Source: an uncultured Gammaproteobacteria bacterium
Lineage (GTDB): Bacteria; Patescibacteriota; Patescibacteriia; 2-12-FULL-60-25
NCBI GenBank assembly: GCA_964405175.1
Contig: CAYOMV010000003.1
Span: 1 to 33,758, forward strand
Reading direction: 5' to 3'
Length of the DNA stretch: 33,758 nucleotides
The position numbers and the translations under genes were made by a program. The notes under the pieces are model-generated. The model searched no databases and was not told the DNA's origin. It worked only from the letters and a program-made list of their open reading frames with translations. Below are positions 8,615 to 33,657 of the stretch, in pieces (the stretch's first letter is position 1; the number at the start of each line of letters is the position of its first letter).

Positions 8615-9052
<438 letters not shown>

Positions 9053-11079: not shown

Positions 11080-11107
11080 TTGTACATTGCACGTTGTACG
11101 TTGTACA
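11080..11107. repeat. Heptamer array TTGTACA/TTGCACG/TTGTACG/TTGTACA
   Basis: Four phased 7-mers immediately upstream of the 11118 start. Confidence 0.8.
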
Positions 11108-13451: not shown

Positions 13452-14307
13452 ATGGAACAGCTGTTAAGATATTGTTGACTATAACTCTTAACAATGCTGT
13501 TCCATGTCTATATTAACGCACGTCCCATCAAACGCCAAGCTCCGTCAAATATTCACTAAATCAACTTTTGGTCCCAGAATATTCTGTCCAAGATGCTCAT
13601 CAAGTCACATTAAAGTCTCAGAAAACAGATATAGATGCCCCAAATGTAGAAAGCCTTTCAGCTTGACCAGTGTTTCTTGGCTTAGAAATACCAAGTTAGA
13701 TTTAAAGACAATATGGCTGCTTCTCGTTTGTTGGCAGAAGAAAATAGCTTTCAATACAACGGCTGAAATCATAGGTATTTCATCAGTCACAGTCAGAAGA
13801 TGGTACAGGAGATTTCAAGACAACATAGTCTATGAAAGCCCAATATTAAAAGGAATTATTGAAATGGACGAAGCTTTTGTGGGTCGAAGAAGGTATGGAA
13901 ATCAAAAGATTATTCTAGGCGCCTATGAACGAAATTCCAAGAAGATAGTACTTCGTCTTTCACGCAACAGAGATCAAGAAGCAACTGATAGATTTCTTTT
14001 AAGTAACGTTAGTCAGCAAAGTATGGTTTGGACTGACGGAGCCCAGTGTTATGAGGGTATTAATGAGTTCTTTGGCTATCTTCATGCTTCTTGCAATCAC
14101 TCCAAATTCTACTTCGGACCAACCAATCATATTGAATGTGTCTGGTCTGTGTTTAAAAGATACATCAGGAGAACATATCATCACTATCACAAGAAATGGT
14201 TGCCCAATTTACTGCGGGAATTCGAGGCTCGTTGGAACGCTCCTAAAATGTTCGAAAATCCGCTTAACTACCTACAAATATGCTTAATGGTTGTTCCATG
14301 TCGTTGA
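13452..14307 (+). mobile_element. IS1595-family insertion sequence (about 0.85 kb)
   Basis: Single transposase ORF. Terminal inverted repeats ATGGAACAGC (13452-) and GTTGTTCCATG (-14300). An extra inward-facing copy of the end sequence (13486-13503) pairs with the left end. Confidence 0.65.
13504..14307 (+). CDS. IS1595-family (ISXO2-like) DDE transposase
   Basis: N-terminal zinc ribbon CPRC...CPKC, HTH region, then IEMDEAFVG...ILGAYER... and TDGAQCY typical of DDE_Tnp_IS1595. Confidence 0.85.
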   Translation: MSILTHVPSNAKLRQIFTKSTFGPRIFCPRCSSSHIKVSENRYRCPKCRKPFSLTSVSWLRNTKLDLKTIWLLLVCWQKKIAFNTTAEIIGISSVTVRRWYRRFQDNIVYESPILKGIIEMDEAFVGRRRYGNQKIILGAYERNSKKIVLRLSRNRDQEATDRFLLSNVSQQSMVWTDGAQCYEGINEFFGYLHASCNHSKFYFGPTNHIECVWSVFKRYIRRTYHHYHKKWLPNLLREFEARWNAPKMFENPLNYLQICLMVVPCR

Positions 14308-14527
14308 CAAAAGCCCGTCTTTTTAGTATTGACAACTAAAGCATTATTTGCTAAGCCTTACTCATAGGAGGACCTTTATTTTTTAAAAAGTCCTTATGCG
14401 CATAGCAGAAAAAGATTTATACAAGTATACAAATGAAGTATTGGCTTGGATCTTACCCGCCGCAAATCTGGCCCTTGGGATCTACTGCATCGTCTATACC
14501 CTGCAAACCCAAAACATTTGGTAAAAA

Positions 14528-14550
14528 GACTCCTCGCGGAGTTTTTTTTT
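14528..14550 (+). terminator. Orphan hairpin and T9 terminator 36 nt upstream of the transketolase N-subunit start
   Basis: GACTCC (14528-14533) / GGAGTT (14538-14543) followed by a T-run to 14550. No credible CDS ends upstream of it. Confidence 0.55.
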
Positions 14551-14585
14551 ATTTCCTGCCAACCATGTTAAAATACTGCAAAGAT

Positions 14586-15494
14586 ATGAAAACCATTAAA
14601 CAGTTGGAAAAAATCGCCAACCAAATCCGCCAAGACATAATCAACATGCTATTATCCGCAGGCTCCGGCCACTCTGCCGGCCCGCTGGGGATGGCTGATG
14701 TTTTTACCGCGGTTTATTTGGGAGGTGTGGCAAACCTCAACCCCAAAAAGAAAAACGACCCTTCTCGCGACCGTGTCGTGCTCTCAAACGCGCACATCTG
14801 CCCTGTTCTCTACGCAGCCCTCGCTCATGCCGGCTTTATCCCTCACTCCAAGCTAAAAACACTTCGCAAATTCGGCAGCCCCCTGCAGGGCCACTCCAAC
14901 AACCATTACAACAACGGTATCGAAACCTGCGGAGGCCCGTTGGGCCAAGGCCTTTCTCAAGCCTGCGGTATGGCTCTCGCTTCCCGAATCAATACCAAAT
15001 ATCAAATACCAAATGCCAAATCTAAACAGCGTAATACGAAATACGAAATACGAAATTCGAATTATCATACCTGGTGCCTCATGAGCGACGGTGAATTTAA
15101 CGAAGGCCAAACCTGGGAAGCCGTAATGCTGGCCGGCAAATACGACCTACGCGAAGTAACCGCTATAATCGACCGCAACAATATCCAAATCGACGGCTTT
15201 ACGGAAGACGTAATGCCCCTGGAAAACTTCCGCGCCAAACTCGAAGCTAACAATTGGTTCGTTATCGAAGTAGACGGCCACAACATCAGAGAAATTTTAG
15301 ACGCCATGAAAAAAGCCAAAGCCATGGCCGCCAACCCAACCGCAATCATCTGCCACACAATACCGGGTAAAGGGGTCGACTTCATGGAGAATAAATTTGA
15401 ATGGCACGGAAAACCCCCCAACAAAGAAGAGGCCAAACAAGCCCTCCACGACATCCGAACCTTAGGCGGTAAAATTTACAGTGAACACCAATGA
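14586..15494 (+). CDS. Transketolase, N-terminal (TPP/pyrophosphate-binding) subunit
   Basis: Starts MKTIKQLEKIANQIRQDI. GSGHSAGPLG, GPLGQGLS, SDGEFNEGQTWEA, IDRNNIQIDG. The ORF-track start at 14433 lies upstream of a terminator and adds non-family residues. Carries an in-frame repeat insertion. Confidence 0.9.
   Translation: MKTIKQLEKIANQIRQDIINMLLSAGSGHSAGPLGMADVFTAVYLGGVANLNPKKKNDPSRDRVVLSNAHICPVLYAALAHAGFIPHSKLKTLRKFGSPLQGHSNNHYNNGIETCGGPLGQGLSQACGMALASRINTKYQIPNAKSKQRNTKYEIRNSNYHTWCLMSDGEFNEGQTWEAVMLAGKYDLREVTAIIDRNNIQIDGFTEDVMPLENFRAKLEANNWFVIEVDGHNIREILDAMKKAKAMAANPTAIICHTIPGKGVDFMENKFEWHGKPPNKEEAKQALHDIRTLGGKIYSEHQ
14991..15067. repeat. Eleven phased heptamers (AATACCA-type then AATACGA-type) inside the transketolase N-subunit CDS
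   Basis: aatacca aatatca aatacca aatgcca aatctaa acagcgt aatacga aatacga aatacga aattcga attatca. Translated as NTKYQIPNAKSKQRNTKYEIRNSNYH. Confidence 0.9.
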
Positions 15495-15532
15495 TAAAAA
15501 AGATTTTGGATTACTTTGATTTTATACAGTAT

Positions 15533-15574
15533 AGTGATCAGTGAACAGTGAATAGTGGATAGCGATTAGTGAAG
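15533..15574. repeat. Heptamer array AGTGAAC-type (6 copies), left flank of the four-helix-bundle gene
   Basis: agtgatc agtgaac agtgaat agtggat agcgatt agtgaag. Complementary to the array at 15955. Confidence 0.9.
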
Positions 15575-15585
15575 TTATAAAAGAT

Positions 15586-15954
15586 ATGTATATAGAAAAA
15601 TTTGAAGATTTGATAGTCTGGCAAAAAGCTAAAAAACTGAATATCATAATTCACAACTGCATGATAAAAGTAAACGATTTCGGCTATAAGAATCAAATCG
15701 AAAGAGCTCCCATATCAATAATGAACAATATCGCTGAAGGCTTCGACAAACAAACTACTAAAGAATACAAACAATTTCTACATATAGCCAAAGGATCGTG
15801 CAGCGAAGTAAAAAGCATGCTTTATCTGGGACTGGAATACAAATATTTCAATATCGAACAATTTAACGAAGCATACATGTTGACTGAAGAAATTAGTAAA
15901 ATATTATTTAAAATGATTAATTCACTACAACAAAAACTCAACAATAAACCCTAA
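15586..15954 (+). CDS. Four-helix-bundle protein (23S rRNA intervening-sequence protein family)
   Basis: 122 aa. FEDLIVWQKA, ISIMNNIAEGF, F..FL.IAKGSCSEV are the hallmarks of this family as I recall them. Confidence 0.85.
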   Translation: MYIEKFEDLIVWQKAKKLNIIIHNCMIKVNDFGYKNQIERAPISIMNNIAEGFDKQTTKEYKQFLHIAKGSCSEVKSMLYLGLEYKYFNIEQFNEAYMLTEEISKILFKMINSLQQKLNNKP

Positions 15955-15993
15955 TTCACTGTCCACTGTTCACTGTCCCCTGTCCCCTGTCCT
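15955..15993. repeat. Heptamer array TTCACTG/TCCACTG/TCCCCTG (5.5 copies), right flank of the four-helix-bundle gene
   Basis: ttcactg tccactg ttcactg tcccctg tcccctg tcct, then ATG 15994. 15955-15975 is complementary to 15539-15559 at 18 of 21 positions. Confidence 0.9.
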
Positions 15994-16971
15994 ATGAAAC
16001 TATCCCCTCTCAATCCCTACATCCTGTACAAAACCGTAGAAAAAATCCCCACTCGCGATGGCTATGGCGATGCGCTTTTGGAGCTCGGTGAAAGCAATCC
16101 CGACGTCGTAGTTCTTACGGCTGATCTTGCCGAATCCACACGAGCTCAAAAATTTGGGGAAACTTATCCTGAAAGATATATAGAATGCGGCGTGGCCGAA
16201 CAAAACATGATGGGTGTTGCAGCCGGTTTGGCATTATCCGGTAAAATCCCTTTTGTCTCATCCTACGCCGTCTTCTCCCCGGGCCGCAGTTGGGATCAGC
16301 TCCGTGTATCCGTCTGCTACAGCAAAGCAAATGTTAAAATAGCCGGCGCGCATACAGGTGTATCGGTTGGCCCGGACGGCGCCACGCATCAAGCGTTGGA
16401 AGACATGGCTATCACGCGCGTTATCCCGGATATCATAGTTTGCGCGCCCTGCGATGCGGAAGAAACACGCAAATGCACAATTGCGGCAGCCAAACACAAA
16501 GGCCCTGTCTACTTCCGCTTCGCCCGCGAAAAAACCCCTGTCATCACAACTAAAAAAACACCTTTCACGTTTGGCAAAGCTTATGTCTGCCGTGAAGGTT
16601 ATGATGTAACAATAATCGCCTGCGGCCCCCTGCTCCACGAGGCTTTATTGGCCGCCGAAGAACTCGCCAAAAATCACATCGAAGCCGAAGTCATCAACTC
16701 ACACACCATCAAGCCATTGGACGGTAAAACAATCAAAGAGTCCTTAAATAAAACAGCCTGTGCCGTCACCATAGAAGAGCATCAAGTCACAGGCGGATTG
16801 CACGGCGCTGTCGCCGAGTTTTGCGCGCAAAATATCCCGGTCCCCATCGAAGCCATCGGCATGCCCAACACCTTCGGCCAATCCGGCGAACCGGATGAGC
16901 TCATCACTTATTACGGAATGCGAGCCAAAGAAATCGTCAAAGCCGCCAAGAAAGCAATTAAAAGAAAATAG
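15994..16971 (+). CDS. Transketolase, C-terminal (pyrimidine-binding plus C-terminal domain) subunit
   Basis: 325 aa. TRDGYGDAL, ECGVAEQNM.GVAAGLA, GPDGATHQALEDMA, HTIKPLD. Confidence 0.9.
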   Translation: MKLSPLNPYILYKTVEKIPTRDGYGDALLELGESNPDVVVLTADLAESTRAQKFGETYPERYIECGVAEQNMMGVAAGLALSGKIPFVSSYAVFSPGRSWDQLRVSVCYSKANVKIAGAHTGVSVGPDGATHQALEDMAITRVIPDIIVCAPCDAEETRKCTIAAAKHKGPVYFRFAREKTPVITTKKTPFTFGKAYVCREGYDVTIIACGPLLHEALLAAEELAKNHIEAEVINSHTIKPLDGKTIKESLNKTACAVTIEEHQVTGGLHGAVAEFCAQNIPVPIEAIGMPNTFGQSGEPDELITYYGMRAKEIVKAAKKAIKRK

Positions 16972-17739: not shown

Positions 17740-17770
17740 CTAGAAGCTAGAGGCTAGAAGCTAGAGGCTA
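17740..17770. repeat. Heptamer array CTAGAAG/CTAGAGG x4.4
   Basis: ctagaag ctagagg ctagaag ctagagg cta. Confidence 0.9.
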
Positions 17771-17771
17771 T

Positions 17772-18338
17772 TTATAAGTTATTCATTATCTTCACCATCA
17801 ACTCTCTCTCCGCCTGTTGGTTAGCCTCATGATCAAGCCTGCCAAGAGAAACGTCCACTGTTATCAAAACACTTTTATTTTTCGCCAAAGTATACAAAGC
17901 CCCCCCTCCCACAAAATCCATTTTTGTTTGATAACTGGCATCGCCCAAATCATCAACCTCAGCCACGCCATCTAAAAAATCTTTCTGCGCGTTATACAAT
18001 TCTTCCGCGTTCATGTCGCTCATCATATCTTTAGATTGCTGCACCGTAATCTGTGCCATCGTAACGGCATCTTCACTGGGTACGTCATAAACGCAAAGCT
18101 TTTGCCCTGTCGCGTTTCTGGGGCTGGTATCATTTTCAATAATCGTGGAATCAACTCCAAACAAGGCATCAATCTCCGATTTATCAATTAAATCGCAAGG
18201 ATTTAAGTTTTTCGCATCCGGTTGTGCTATTGACCCCGAATTATTGTTATTTGTTCGTTCTTCGGTATTCTGCTCCTCGCATCCCGCGCCAAATAAGGCT
18301 AAAATTAGCAAAATTGGTAAAATATGTGTCAATTTCAT
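17772..18338 (-). CDS. Putative lipoprotein or secreted protein (188 aa)
   Basis: MKLTHILPILLILALFGAGCEEQ (signal peptide with Cys). A perfect TATAAT (plus coordinates 18348-18353) lies 9 nt upstream of the ATG with no SD. Confidence 0.65.
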   Translation of the reverse strand: MKLTHILPILLILALFGAGCEEQNTEERTNNNNSGSIAQPDAKNLNPCDLIDKSEIDALFGVDSTIIENDTSPRNATGQKLCVYDVPSEDAVTMAQITVQQSKDMMSDMNAEELYNAQKDFLDGVAEVDDLGDASYQTKMDFVGGGALYTLAKNKSVLITVDVSLGRLDHEANQQAERELMVKIMNNL

Positions 18339-18360: not shown

Positions 18361-18389
18361 TTGACAATAACCGCTATTTATGATAATAA
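18361..18389 (+). promoter_or_regulatory. Extended -10 promoter driving the non-coding unit
   Basis: TTGACA (18361-18366), 17-nt spacer ending in TGA, then TAATAA (18384-18389). Confidence 0.45.
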
Positions 18390-18396
18390 GCCATGT

Positions 18397-18808
18397 CCTG
18401 GAGGCCTTGCCCGGCCCCCGGGACACTCTCAAAATATAAAGTCCCTTCACAAATCTTCGAGACTATAAATTTGAGAGAACAAGCATGCCTTAAGCAAAGG
18501 GCAAATACCGAAAGCAAGGCGCGCTTTCGTAAACATAAGACTGTTATCGCATAGCGAAGCAGTCTGTCGCATGAGGCGAGGAGAGAATTTAAACCGCACT
18601 CGGTTAACGAGGCGGACAAGGAGGAAGCCGCAGCAGGAGTGCGCGGCACTGTCGGGTCGAATGACCTGGCAAGGTCGGGTCGAATGACCTGACAAAAGAG
18701 GAGATCTTAAAAACTTAAGCATGCTTAGCCCATGACGTAGGGACACTGTCCCGCCCATGGGACAGGTAAAATCGCTAACCGCCGCGACATTTGTCAAAGC
18801 GGTTTTTT
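18397..18808 (+). ncRNA. Candidate structured non-coding RNA or very long leader, family unassigned
   Basis: No credible ORF. Bounded by a promoter and a hairpin-T6 terminator. Many local helices and one long-range 13-bp helix. Contains a tandem duplicated 18-nt hairpin. Details are in the findings. Confidence 0.5.
18777..18808 (+). terminator. Intrinsic terminator ending the non-coding unit
   Basis: AACCGC (18777-18782) / GCGGTT (18799-18804) with inner GACA/TGTC, followed by T6. Confidence 0.6.
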
Positions 18809-18816
18809 CTTTGAAC

Positions 18817-18851
18817 CTCTTTGCACTTTGTACTTTATACTTTATACTGAT
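18817..18851. repeat. Heptamer array CACTTTG/TACTTTA (5 copies) that also supplies promoter-like hexamers
   Basis: ctctttg cactttg tacttta tacttta tactgat. Contains TTGCAC (18821-18826), a 16-nt spacer and TATACT (18843-18848), 9 nt before ATG 18858. Confidence 0.85.
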
Positions 18852-18857
18852 TGTAAT

Positions 18858-19829
18858 ATGAAGTTCGACATAGTCTGCATCGGCGAATGTCTGCGCGACA
18901 TTTTTTACATAATCGACGAAGCCTCTGTTAGCTGTACCATTAACAAAGAACGCTGTCTGCTTTGTTTGGAATACGCGGAAAAAATTCCCGTCAAAGACGT
19001 TATCAAAGTCAAAGCCGCCGGAAACTCAGCCAATGCGGCCGTCAGCGCCTCTCGACTTGGTTTAACCGGTGCCTTGGTTAGCTGGGCCGGCCCTGATTTT
19101 GCCGGCGATCAAATCGAAGAAGCCCTGGGAGAAGAAAATATAGATATTTCGTTGCTAAGCCGACGCAAAGGCCAGCAAACCAGCGAAGCAACACTGCTAA
19201 GCTATCAAGGCGAACGCACGCAATTGCTCTTCTTTAAACCCCGCGATTACAAACTGCCCAAACTGCCCGCAACCGATTGGATCTATTACAGCGCAATGGG
19301 CAAAAAATTCGATTCTTTTGATAAAGAACTTATTACGTACCTGCAAAAAAATAACCATAAATTCGCTTTCCAGCCCGGCACCACTCATGTTCACAAGGGT
19401 TTAAAATATCTTAAACCTCTAATTAAACTTTGCGACATATACATACTCAACAAAGAAGAAGCTCAATATATTTTAGACGGCAGAGAACGTCCCATAAAAA
19501 ATTTACTCGAAGATTTCCATAAACTCGGCGCCAAAACCATCGTCATCACCAATGGCAAAGACGGCGCTTATGCTTTTGACGGCAAAACTTTTTGGCACAT
19601 GCCCATCTTCAAAGGCGACGCCAAAGAACGCACCGGCGCTGGCGATGCCTTCGCGGCCGGCTTTACAGTCGCAAAGATGCAGGGCAAAGACATTCCCGAA
19701 GCATTGCGTTGGGGTACGGCCAATTCCTGGAGTGTGGTCCGTGAAGTCGGCCCTCAAAAAGGCTTGCTGACAAAGACGAAGATGCAAACCATCCTCAAAC
19801 GCTTCAAAACCAAAGCTAAAAAAATCTAA
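18858..19829 (+). CDS. PfkB-family carbohydrate or nucleoside kinase (ribokinase-like)
   Basis: Starts MKFDIVCIGECLRD. GNSANAA, and the C-terminal TGAGDAFAAGF anion-hole motif. Confidence 0.85.
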   Translation: MKFDIVCIGECLRDIFYIIDEASVSCTINKERCLLCLEYAEKIPVKDVIKVKAAGNSANAAVSASRLGLTGALVSWAGPDFAGDQIEEALGEENIDISLLSRRKGQQTSEATLLSYQGERTQLLFFKPRDYKLPKLPATDWIYYSAMGKKFDSFDKELITYLQKNNHKFAFQPGTTHVHKGLKYLKPLIKLCDIYILNKEEAQYILDGRERPIKNLLEDFHKLGAKTIVITNGKDGAYAFDGKTFWHMPIFKGDAKERTGAGDAFAAGFTVAKMQGKDIPEALRWGTANSWSVVREVGPQKGLLTKTKMQTILKRFKTKAKKI

Positions 19830-20509: not shown

Positions 20510-20577
20510 GCGGCGACCCACTCCAGCCCCCTTTCAGAAAGGGGGTGTCCCGACGAATGTCGGGGCGTACGAATACT

Positions 20578-20695
20578 CTCGGCTTCCCTTCCTACCGTAC
20601 GAATTACGAATCTTGAACGAATTACGAATCAATTTCAAAGCCATTCGTAATTCGCGCTTATTCGTAATTCGTAAAGTGAGAAGGGAATAATCCCA
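20578..20695. repeat. Composite palindromic element, copy 1 (118 nt)
   Basis: Outer stem TTCCCTTC/GAAGGGAA. Inner arms are TACGAAT heptamer repeats facing ATTCGTA repeats. Ends 43 nt before ATG 20738. Confidence 0.85.
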
Positions 20696-20737
20696 CGCAC
20701 CTCAACCCCGCCCCAAAAGGGGCAAAGGAGATTGAAA

Positions 20738-21445
20738 ATGAATCGTTCAACCATGTTTGTATCTTGTTTCTTGGTAGTATTTGTATATATTTTATGTGGC
20801 TGCTCCGCAAAGCAACCCCATGAGGCTCATACGGTGATCCGAGTGAGCGCAGAACCGAGATCGGAATATCCTTTATTTGAAGAGGACCCACCTACCTGGG
20901 TAACGCACTGCATTTTGAAAAGCGAATTGAAACCACCGAGTTTCAATTTGCTGAGCTACCCTCAAATGAACCTGGAGACGCAGATAGAACAAGAAACACG
21001 GCTTCAATTCCGTGTCCCAGAATACCAAGAGAATGGCATTCGTATCGATCCCGAGCTTTGGCAAGAAATGTATGTTGGCCGTATCATAGGCAACTTCTAC
21101 ATTTCAAATATCAATAAAAAGGCCAAAGCTGCAATGCAATTAATGAGCAATCAACAGAATCTTAGGTGGTATGAAATAGCGCCGAGGTCATATAAAAGCT
21201 CCTTTATTGGATTGCTTTCCGCTCGCACTGCGCATGGAGAGATACACGGAGTCTTTAGCGACTTAAATGCGCACGAAGAATGCCGAGAAAACTTCCGTTA
21301 CTTATTCGATTTGGATGAGCTAGACTATAAAGGCAAGCTCTTCAGAAACAACGCCGGAATGACCGGCTTGTTGAGCTTTCAGCCCGAATATGTCGAACTT
21401 ATCCTACCTGGAAGCGGACCGATCTGCGTCCAGGTTAATTCCTAA
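20738..21445 (+). CDS. Putative lipoprotein (235 aa), no known domain
   Basis: AAAGGAG RBS 7 nt upstream. MNRSTMFVSCFLVVFVYILCGCS has a lipobox-like LCGC. The 5' end is shared with 22234. Confidence 0.6.
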   Translation: MNRSTMFVSCFLVVFVYILCGCSAKQPHEAHTVIRVSAEPRSEYPLFEEDPPTWVTHCILKSELKPPSFNLLSYPQMNLETQIEQETRLQFRVPEYQENGIRIDPELWQEMYVGRIIGNFYISNINKKAKAAMQLMSNQQNLRWYEIAPRSYKSSFIGLLSARTAHGEIHGVFSDLNAHEECRENFRYLFDLDELDYKGKLFRNNAGMTGLLSFQPEYVELILPGSGPICVQVNS

Positions 21446-21479
21446 CCCACCTCCCCAGCCGACTCGCAACTCCGCGACC

Positions 21480-21578
21480 CTCGGCTTCCCTTCCCACCAT
21501 ACGAATTACGAATCTTGAACGAATTACGAATCGTTTCAAAGCCATTCGTAATTCGTAAAGTGAGAAGGGAATAACCCA
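21480..21578. repeat. Composite palindromic element, copy 2 (99 nt)
   Basis: Colinear with copy 1 apart from a 17-nt deletion in the 3' arm and a few substitutions. Ends 35 nt before the 21613 start. Confidence 0.85.
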
Positions 21579-24138: not shown

Positions 24139-24153
24139 ATTAATCGGTAATTG

Positions 24154-24181
24154 ATATTTGGTATTTGGTATTTAATGTATT
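24154..24181. repeat. Heptamer array ATATTTG/GTATTTG (4 copies), reverse complement of the ACCAAAT units in the transketolase N-subunit gene
   Basis: atatttg gtatttg gtattta atgtatt. Abuts the stop codon of the DUF2207 gene. Confidence 0.85.
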
Positions 24182-28673: not shown

Positions 28674-28736
28674 AGATACCAGCCGCCAGATGCAAGATAC
28701 TAAATAATAGATAATAGATAATAAATAATAAATGTT
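28674..28736. repeat. Heptamer array AGATACC to AGATAAT to AAATAAT (9 copies)
   Basis: agatacc agccgcc agatgca agatact aaataat agataat agataat aaataat aaatgtt, then ATG 28739. Confidence 0.85.
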
Positions 28737-33593: not shown

Positions 33594-33642
33594 GATCATT
33601 ATTTATTATTTGTTATTTCTGATTTGTTATTTATTATTTAAT
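33594..33642. repeat. Heptamer array ATTTATT/ATTTGTT/ATTTCTG (7 copies)
   Basis: gatcatt atttatt atttgtt atttctg atttgtt atttatt atttaat. Reverse complement resembles the AATAAAT-type units at 28702-28736. Confidence 0.85.
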
Positions 33643-33657
33643 ATCTGAAAGTTTTTT

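Follow-up and report, generated by a model that had tools for sequence, protein, structure and literature searches.

A predicted gene for a structured non-coding RNA ahead of pfkB in a sub-lineage of Candidatus Uhrbacteria

The DNA considered here is a stretch of 33,758 nucleotides (nt) from a metagenomic assembly (contig CAYOMV010000003.1 of GCA_964405175.1; this whole stretch is called the window). It holds an intergenic unit of about 415 nt which is predicted to be transcribed into a structured, untranslated RNA. The window is a piece of a chromosome from the Patescibacteria, or Candidate Phyla Radiation (CPR). Pfam matches in it were to FemAB, RuvA, a Ser/Thr kinase, IleRS, RpiB, Rpe, an IS1595 transposase, a split transketolase and a PfkB kinase. 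The closest relatives of the PfkB protein came from metagenome-assembled genomes (MAGs) labelled Candidatus Uhrbacteria or Patescibacteria group; several relative MAGs carry the wrong label 'uncultured Gammaproteobacteria'. The RNA unit is located between a small divergent gene and pfkB as follows:

17772-18338, minus strand: small divergent lipoprotein-like gene, left neighbour of the RNA unit
18361-18387, plus strand: promoter-like element, TTGACA (18361-18366), 12 nt, then TATGATAAT (18379-18387, with GATAAT at 18382-18387)
18393-18808, plus strand: predicted RNA of about 415 nt; the 5' end is expected 6-8 nt past the -10 element, the 3' end within the T-run
18777-18808, plus strand: intrinsic-terminator-like hairpin, AACCGC...GCGGTT with an inner GAC/GTC, then six T; local fold -10.7 kcal/mol
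18820-18848, plus strand: promoter-like site of pfkB, TTTGCA, 17 nt, TATACT; it ends 9 nt before the ATG at 18858 and lies outside the RNA
18858-19829, plus strand: pfkB, right neighbour of the RNA unit

The motifs at both ends lie exactly where an earlier note, drawn up from the letters of the window, had placed them. TTGACA-N12-TATGATAAT, or a close variant, was present at the start of all 13 homologous RNAs described below, with unchanged spacing, and probably functions as a promoter. The terminator hairpin was likewise found in 13 of 13. The homologues end in AACCRCC...GGYGGTT followed by 4-8 T, and the stem displayed a compensatory change from G-C to A-U (CCGCC/GGCGG to CCACC/GGUGG). A scan for consensus promoters did not call the element upstream of the RNA, in which the spacer to GATAAT is 15 nt, and a scan for consensus terminators did not call the hairpin, which has a 16-nt loop with an inner 3-bp stem. 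We take both signals as real because they were kept in every homologue.

The G+C content was 51.5% in 18401-18800 compared to about 40-46% on the flanks. Three open reading frames (ORFs) overlap the unit, two antisense (116 and 91 amino acids) and one sense (53 amino acids). When the three translations were compared with the homologous RNAs by tblastn, scattered fragments in differing frames were obtained, even from the nearest relatives, and no conserved ORF was found. The longest open stretch shifted strand and frame from homologue to homologue. Direct reading of the sequences revealed no conserved start codon at Shine-Dalgarno (SD) spacing 3' of any GGAG linker. The earlier note had called the region ORF-free; this agrees with the finding that neither antisense ORF was conserved in frame.

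Homologues were collected by three routes. Six homologous loci came from PfkB relatives in GTDB genomes, scanning of genomes and metagenomes for sequence patterns contributed L080 and recovered the others again, and PfkB look-ups in public assemblies added L083, L097/L098 and the short variants L088, L085/L086 (identical to L105) and L087. This resulted in 10 distinct full-length RNAs of 381-439 nt and 3 short variants of about 306-310 nt, which are alike at both ends. The hosts are Candidatus Uhrbacteria/Patescibacteria MAGs. In all 13 the locus is the same, i.e. tktN, tktC, a small minus-strand gene, the RNA and pfkB, often followed by fba. Two of the short variants, L085 and L087, lack the helices H3, H5, H6 and H10 (defined below) and still have the promoter, H1, the hairpin with the conserved loop, the long-range helix and the terminator. 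What the short variants preserve as a group is limited to the 5' hairpins, a single stretch rich in GGAG, the long-range helix and the terminator.

The RNA was present in every judged locus in which PfkB was at least 64% identical to that of the window; L069 was not judged as its contig stops 380 nt upstream of pfkB. It was absent from four loci with a PfkB of 58-63% identity. In three of these the flanking genes are separated by 77-95 bp, and in the fourth, L112, the 334 nt that could be read were unrelated. The RNA is single-copy per genome and always at this locus; pattern scans of the genome contigs retrieved none elsewhere. Patterns built from the conserved blocks identified in genome contigs only the known loci plus L105. 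The metagenome pattern scan gave three true and two chance matches, phage records yielded no match to the RNA, and of four matches in two pattern scans of viral contigs none was homologous by nhmmer. Using the 18-nt hairpin which is duplicated in the window RNA as a probe we obtained 63 matches, all by chance with the possible exception of an intergenic hairpin in Candidatus Doudnabacteria (L029, 3210-3330, minus strand). This short hairpin is otherwise unrelated and shares with the window RNA the exact 20-mer GTCGGGTCGAATGACCTGAC plus GCGAAGCAGTCT. The shared letters may be due to chance or may represent a small hairpin module common to CPR genomes.

The plus strand of 18390-18810 folded with a minimum free energy of -167.9 kcal/mol compared to -122.5 +/- 5.2 kcal/mol for shuffled sequences (z = -8.8; 0 of 100 shuffles were as low). 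The minus strand folded at z = -4.9. RNAalifold predicted 84 pairs from 8 sequences, 27 of them with compensatory changes. The helices of the window RNA were then projected onto an alignment of the 10 full-length members which had been generated by MAFFT from sequence only. Here 80.6% of the cells were paired and 20 of 80 pairs had changes on both sides, a result matched by none of 500 shuffles; shared ancestry and the use of one member's structure inflate such counts. When the pairing partners were slid by 1-3 columns as a control, 29-50% were paired and 4-12 pairs were changed on both sides. MAFFT displaced three helices by a column in many rows (H1, the outer stem of H2 and the long-range helix), so that pairing is undercounted there. 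The strands of the long-range helix were therefore anchored by hand in all 13 sequences and scored separately. Positions 5-8 each displayed 3-4 standard pair types and were paired in 12-13 of 13 sequences, with variants such as GCAUGC/GCAUGC, GCUGUGU/ACACAGC, GCUAGUC/GACUAGC and GCGGGAG/CUCCCGC. Covariation thus supports the predicted fold. The claim of a helix-rich unit of about 410 nt was borne out by these data, as promoter, terminator and most helices were conserved with compensatory changes.

One might ask at this point whether the region is a functional RNA at all, or is protein-coding, or a selfish or decaying insert that folds by chance. The antisense ORFs of 91 and 116 amino acids, the duplicating hairpin modules and the narrow phyletic range would fit such a view. 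However, the ORFs are not kept in frame, the element exists as a single copy at one locus, and promoter, terminator, loops and helices are kept with compensatory changes while PfkB falls to 64% identity. We regard the chance of a non-functional or coding insert as close to negligible.

From 5' to 3', the RNA begins with a hairpin, continues with a compound hairpin and with a multi-helix domain which a long-range helix closes, and finishes with a further hairpin and the terminator. The individual elements are:

18395-18424, plus strand: H1, 12-bp G+C-rich 5' hairpin, GTCCTGGAGGCC / GGCCCCCGGGAC; local fold -22.6 kcal/mol, z = -4.3
18426-18477, plus strand: H2, compound hairpin with outer stem CTCTCAAA/TTTGAGAG and inner stem AGTCCC/GAGACT (18440-45/18459-64)
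18446-58, plus strand: apical loop of H2, 13 nt, TTCACAAATCTTC
18481-18494, plus strand: 5' strand of the long-range helix, AAGCATGCCTTAAG, pairs with 18714-18726
18509-18529, plus strand: H3, CGAAAGC-AAGGCGC-GCTTTCG
18538-18565, plus strand: H4, two-part hairpin, AGACTG/CAGTCT with inner TCGC/GCGA
18567-18579, plus strand: H5, TCGC-ATGAG-GCGA
up to 18586, plus strand: m1, purine linker GGAGAGA directly 3' of H5
18594-18615, plus strand: H6, CCGC-A-CTCG / CGAG-GCGG with a GTTAA pentaloop and one bulged A; local fold -13.4 kcal/mol, z = -4.4
18618-18626, plus strand: m2, SD-like linker AAGGAGGAA
18627-18647, plus strand: H7, variable peripheral hairpin
18651-68 and 18674-91, plus strand: H8 and H9, exact tandem copies of GTCGGGTCGAATGACCTG (18 nt)
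18698-18706, plus strand: m3, purine linker GAGGAGATC, precedes the 3' strand of the long-range helix
18714-18726, plus strand: 3' strand of the long-range helix, CTTAAGCATGCTT, covarying at positions 5-8
18729-18761, plus strand: H10, CCCATG...CATGGG around GGGAC-ACT-GTCCC; local fold -16.8 kcal/mol

H1, a hairpin which was not listed in the earlier note, was found in 13 of 13 variants and had compensatory changes at 5 pairs among 8 sequences. The outer stem of H2 had been proposed earlier and was reproduced by the local fold. Its sequence is kept apart from a single swap of A-U to U-A, and in L088 it is replaced by GUUCUCC/GGAGAAC. The inner stem covaries, with U-A changed to C-G in 7 of 10 sequences, and the 3' strand of the internal loop, ATAAAC (ATAAAY), is conserved. 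Possibly m1 (GAGAGA) can displace the 3' strand of the outer stem. The long-range helix AAGCATGCCTTAAG/CTTAAGCATGCTT, read by eye in the earlier note, had the strong covariation reported above. Its two strands pair across 202-263 nt (full-length members) or 118-158 nt (short variants), and between them lie H3, H4, H5, H6 and the variable H7-H9.

H3, i.e. the CGAAAGC/GCTTTCG helix of the earlier note, was reproduced by the local fold. It is invariant in sequence (97% of cells paired, with G-U as the only variation) and hence is neutral with respect to covariation; it is missing from L085 and L087. In H4, which includes the previously noted GACTG/CAGTC with its inner TCGC/GCGA and was also reproduced by the local fold, the sequence of the stems changes in every subgroup while complementarity is kept. 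H5 is invariant in 10 of 10 full-length members, and in L088 it reads UCAC-AUGAG-GUGA, a compensatory change from G-C to A-U. A helix AACCG (18592-96)/CGGTT (18601-05) had been suggested for the next segment; the conserved, covarying helix at this place is H6. It had changes on both sides at 4 of 8 pairs with 92.5% of cells paired, and the bulged base and the GUUAA loop are conserved. The 18-nt tandem duplication of H8/H9 is indeed an exact repeat, yet it is private to the window genome, and relatives carry other hairpins at that position. L065 and L066 have related NNAU-loop hairpins in the H7-H9 region whereas L067, L068 and L080 have GNRA-capped hairpins there. In L065 an extra hairpin of the H8/H9 type, CGGGTCGTATGACCCG, is inserted 3' of H5 (about 2620-2640). 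This hairpin type seems to multiply inside the RNA in one subgroup. The outer stem of H10 was 100% paired in 10 sequences and alternates between C-G/G-U and U-A/U-G; H10 is missing from the short variants.

Two further pairings were not supported by the relatives, and the second was rejected. The earlier note had seen in three GGGACA boxes and their GTCCC counterparts a potential switch. These boxes are ordinary strands of H1, of the H2 inner stem and of H10, and two of the three are replaced in relatives (AGCCTC, GTTGGGAGAG). A pseudoknot between the 13-nt loop (ACAAAU) and the terminator loop (AUUUGU) could form in the window and was broken in L065, L066 and L070.

The unit ends upstream of pfkB, on the same strand and with a terminator in 13 of 13 loci. 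This arrangement is what one would expect of a cis-acting leader, attenuator or riboswitch which acts on pfkB via the terminator, and an attenuator-type kinase leader had been one of the suggestions of the earlier note. Against this, the spacer between T-run and ATG varied from 45 to 330 nt, was unrelated in sequence between loci and was filled with lineage-specific heptamer repeats or other inserts. A TATAGT, TATACT or TATAAT hexamer was positioned 6-10 nt upstream of the pfkB ATG in every locus, which implies a separate, nearly leaderless pfkB mRNA. Close -10 boxes of this kind were likewise seen ahead of the divergent lipoprotein gene and of many other genes in the window. No conserved anti-terminator pairing was found; the sole candidate, the 3' strand GGCGG of H6 with CCGCC, is not complementary in L067, L068 and L080, and there was no riboswitch match. 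Finally, pfkB orthologues at 58-63% identity do without the RNA, with gaps of 77-95 bp in the three complete loci. A leader function is therefore very unlikely. The pfkB gene has its own -10 box and the spacer is variable, thus the RNA is an independent gene. Altogether, the comparison of the loci showed that 18393-18808 (plus strand) is a predicted independent gene for a structured non-coding RNA which is untranslated and is no 5' leader of pfkB.

L083 carries at about 2790-2950, 3' of the RNA terminator and ahead of pfkB, another G+C-rich insert which looks structured (…GGGAAGAGAGGG…GAGTTAACACCGGTTCAC…). The same insert is located upstream of pfkB in L069 (1-300). It had no match when the loci were scanned against Rfam 15.

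Does the RNA belong to a known family? The earlier note could not assign it, considered a novel large non-coding RNA and proposed a scan against Rfam together with a covariation check in relatives, where, as reported above, the helices covaried. Scanning of the whole window and of 12 related loci (80 kb) against Rfam 15 by cmscan at gathering scores gave no match, and ARAGORN detected neither a transfer RNA (tRNA) nor a transfer-messenger RNA (tmRNA). At E<=10 the RNA and three homologues had only unrelated matches of 12-20 bits, different in each homologue. A PreQ1 match of 12.5 bits on the loop hairpin of L087 alone was taken as chance. The large orphan RNAs in Rfam, i.e. OLE, ROOL, GOLLD, raiA, HEARO and others, had no covariance-model match in the window or in the 12 loci.

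A highly diverged housekeeping RNA deserves separate consideration, above all RNase P RNA, with 6S RNA, signal recognition particle (SRP) RNA and tmRNA as other candidates. The size would fit, the gene is single-copy with a strong promoter, and diverged CPR RNase P RNAs which score below Rfam thresholds are documented (PMC8172020). Like type A RNase P RNA the window RNA combines a multi-helix domain with a long-range helix, and GGAGGAA is superficially similar to CR-I (GAGGAAAGUCC). Diagnostic for RNase P RNA are a conserved P4 formed by CR-I and CR-V, and P1 formed by the paired ends. Neither RF00010 nor RF00011 matched at gathering score, and none matched at E<=10 in four homologues, with lists reaching down to 12 bits; the cut-off used in PMC8172020 was 5 bits. 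These permissive lists also contained no tmRNA, SRP or 6S RNA. The long-range helix is freely variable in sequence whereas P4 is sequence-conserved. No invariant block of the family corresponds to CR-I or CR-V (ACAGAA..GGCUUA), and GGAGGAA is followed by a local variable hairpin. A P1 is absent: the 5' end is a local hairpin, the 3' end is the terminator, and the ends are not paired with each other. The inner helices are dispensable, being absent from short variants, and the gene itself is missing at the locus in four sister loci. A tmRNA would have a tRNA-like domain built from its paired ends, with a T-arm close to the CCA, and a reading frame for the tag; ARAGORN found 0 genes, Rfam gave no match and the ends are not paired. 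For SRP and 6S RNA there were no matches, and the layout of 5' hairpin, branched domain, 3' hairpin and terminator is a different one; SRP RNA is marked by its domain IV motif, and 6S RNA is a rod with a central bubble, which the window RNA lacks. We consider a housekeeping RNA in disguise highly improbable.

These searches showed that the RNA is a previously undescribed family, absent from Rfam and confined to one sub-lineage of Candidatus Uhrbacteria (Patescibacteria/CPR). It is a new family within the class of orphan structured bacterial non-coding RNAs. With OLE, ROOL, GOLLD and raiA it has in common a length of several hundred nucleotides, many covarying helices, conserved junctions and an orphan function, and like those it was found via the signature of a G+C-rich, ORF-free, strongly folding intergenic region. 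It differs by the absence of a covariance-model match, a far narrower range (one Uhrbacteria sub-lineage) and another architecture. OLE is flanked by genes for partner proteins, and ROOL and GOLLD occur in the surroundings of prophages and tRNA genes; the window RNA is associated with neither kind of neighbour.

What remains constant in this RNA while its scaffold changes are a few accessible segments. The 13-nt loop reads UUCACAAAUCUUC in most members, and the short variants have CUCACAAAUCUUA; 12 of 13 sequences show little or no change in it. By prediction it was 95-100% unpaired in 9 of the 10 full-length members, the exception being L065 with 0.47. The purine linkers are GAGGAGAGA / GCGAGGAGAGA after H5, AAGGAGGAA / RRGGAGGAA after H6 and GAGGAGAUC before the 3' strand of the long-range helix. 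RRGGAGGAA (m2) was present in 9 of 10 full-length members, twice in L097, and is degenerate in L071, as is m1. GAGGAGA of m3 was invariant in 10 of 10. According to base-pair probabilities the AAGGAGG form of m2 was 0.71-0.94 unpaired in 6 of 7 scored members and 0.35 in L067; m1 was often paired by prediction and m2 mostly unpaired. The three conserved linkers hold four A(N)GGA sites, fewer than in known Csr/Rsm RNAs. AGGAG occurred at 9.6 per kb in the RNA compared to 0.76 per kb in the window, a 13-fold difference.

In the window, 2 of 29 ORF starts were preceded by an SD core (GGAG, GAGG, AGGA), as many as expected at random. Accordingly, the SD-like motifs of the RNA are not ordinary ribosome-binding sites. 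A -10-like hexamer TAnnnT ended 5-12 nt before the start of 10 of 29 ORFs compared to 11.5% at random positions, which suggests that leaderless mRNAs are widespread. The number of GGAG linkers varied from 1 to 4 across members while the flanking hairpins were replaced. If binding sites are repeated on a scaffold, one expects such motifs to stay constant while the hairpins around them are exchanged, duplicated or deleted. In addition, a sequestering or scaffold RNA accounts better than a fixed-core ribozyme for short versions which lack most inner helices.

Our best guess, held with modest confidence, is that the RNA acts in trans as a binding platform. Its constant elements would be the exposed loop UUCACAAAUCUUC, the bulged hairpin with the GUUAA loop and three single-stranded purine linkers with A(N)GGA/GGAGG, and the purine sites would sequester a partner which recognises GGA/GGAGG. 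Such a partner could be a translational regulator of the CsrA type, or else 16S rRNA through its CCUCC tail; in ultra-small groundwater prokaryotes csrA is reported to be highly expressed (PMC9938205). The RNA would then be a sponge of the CsrB/RsmZ or the 6S type, and not a ribozyme or riboswitch. CsrB, CsrC, RsmY and RsmZ are also stand-alone genes with their own promoter and intrinsic terminator and a length of a few hundred nucleotides (CsrB about 370 nt). In these, too, A(N)GGA/GGAGG is repeated in linkers between hairpins, and the scaffold turns over fast while the motifs stay. In contrast to Csr/Rsm RNAs, the window RNA carries its motifs mostly in linkers and not in hairpin loops; it has extra invariant hairpins, a long-range helix and a conserved 13-nt loop, and neither sequence nor covariance models revealed any similarity. 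Like 6S RNA it is presumably abundant and independently transcribed and could titrate a core gene-expression machine; unlike 6S RNA its ends are unpaired.

Several points weigh against this overall reading. Known Csr/Rsm RNAs contain 7-22 GGA/GGAG sites whereas 3-4 are conserved here, and L071 retains a single intact one. CsrA was not matched by tblastn with two approximate queries in the fetched loci, which are too small a part of each genome for this to be informative. The 13 distinct sequences are from a single clade, and shared ancestry inflates the covariation counts. The invariant H3 and H5 and the conserved junction purines are equally compatible with a compact tertiary fold.

Such a fold could be the core of a ribozyme or a ribonucleoprotein, as in OLE, ROOL, GOLLD and raiA, with the purine junctions, H3 and H5 as contacts or active site. 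A multi-helix junction below a long-range helix, with junction strands and some hairpins invariant and a variable periphery, would agree with this, as would the GNRA tetraloops on peripheral hairpins of L067, L068, L080 and L097. On the other hand, L085 and L087 lack H3, H5, H6 and H10, i.e. the 'core' is dispensable, and neither a tetraloop-receptor nor pseudoknot covariation was found by eye. This makes a compact catalytic or ribonucleoprotein core distinctly unlikely.

The main alternative to a binding platform is a seed function of the 13-nt loop. In an antisense small RNA the exposed C/U/A-rich loop UUCACAAAUCUUC would pair with mRNAs, and the remainder would be scaffold. The loop is the best conserved single-stranded element, also in the short variants, and is predicted to be unpaired. 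Moreover, the neighbours are tkt, rpiB, rpe, pfkB and fba, and genes for small RNAs often adjoin the pathway which they control. Yet complements of the loop were counted 14 times in the 33.7-kb window with 16.8 expected, a window too small to judge; no conserved complementarity to the 5' ends of pfkB or the lipoprotein gene was found, and 415 nt with many conserved helices exceed the need of a seed carrier. An antisense RNA is unlikely on these grounds, though it is a rival to be taken seriously. Somewhat apart stands a tentative proposal, for which we see a minor chance, namely that this is a lineage-specific Patescibacteria ribonucleoprotein RNA whose display of canonical SD motifs would dock on the anti-SD tail of 16S rRNA, thereby binding or sequestering ribosomes, or would titrate a CsrA-type regulator. 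Taken as a whole, an independent novel structured non-coding RNA gene whose product serves as a trans-acting binding platform or sponge is the best explanation, and we rate its chances as slightly better than even.

Other features of the window were recorded in passing. Transketolase is encoded by two genes for the N- and C-terminal parts (14433-16971). The halves are adjacent or overlapping in relatives whereas in the window they are separated by a gene for a PF05635 23S-rRNA-intervening-sequence protein (15586-15954). The transposase gene of the IS1595 family (ISXO2-like) is at 13504-14307. Tandem repeats with a period of 7 are unusually frequent, with at least 17 arrays of 2-10 copies each. 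Examples are 2959-2997, 8771-8804, 11080-11106, 14991-15061, 15531-15573, 15957-15992, 17740-17770, 18825-18848, 24146-24173, 28697-28733 and 33598-33644. Those listed are mostly intergenic and directly upstream of gene starts; 8771-8804 and 14991-15061 are inside ORFs. The heptamers differ between relatives at equivalent places, e.g. GTTCGTA, TTGCTAT and AGTTGTC ahead of pfkB, and might be promoter-proximal elements. Lastly, a palindromic element of about 120 nt is present in two copies (20575-20693 and 21477-21577; 95-97% identical) which flank the ORF 20732-21445. It has 28-nt arms with ATTCGTA repeats inside and may be a repeat that resembles either a miniature inverted-repeat transposable element or a terminator.

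The Patescibacteria/CPR comprise a large share of bacterial diversity and have genomes of about 1 Mb. To our knowledge, almost nothing is known about RNA-based regulation in this group. The practical value of the finding is limited by 13 distinct sequences from one sub-lineage with uncultivated hosts. Nevertheless, a structured RNA of 400 nt which is retained in a reduced genome is likely to be important to the lineage, and it offers RNA biologists a new family which can be modelled and tested. The RNA carries perfect SD-like motifs although the genome apparently is mostly SD-less, and this poses the concrete question of what reads them. If the proposal holds true, the Candidate Phyla Radiation would have its first described regulatory RNA, one which presents SD motifs or titrates CsrA.

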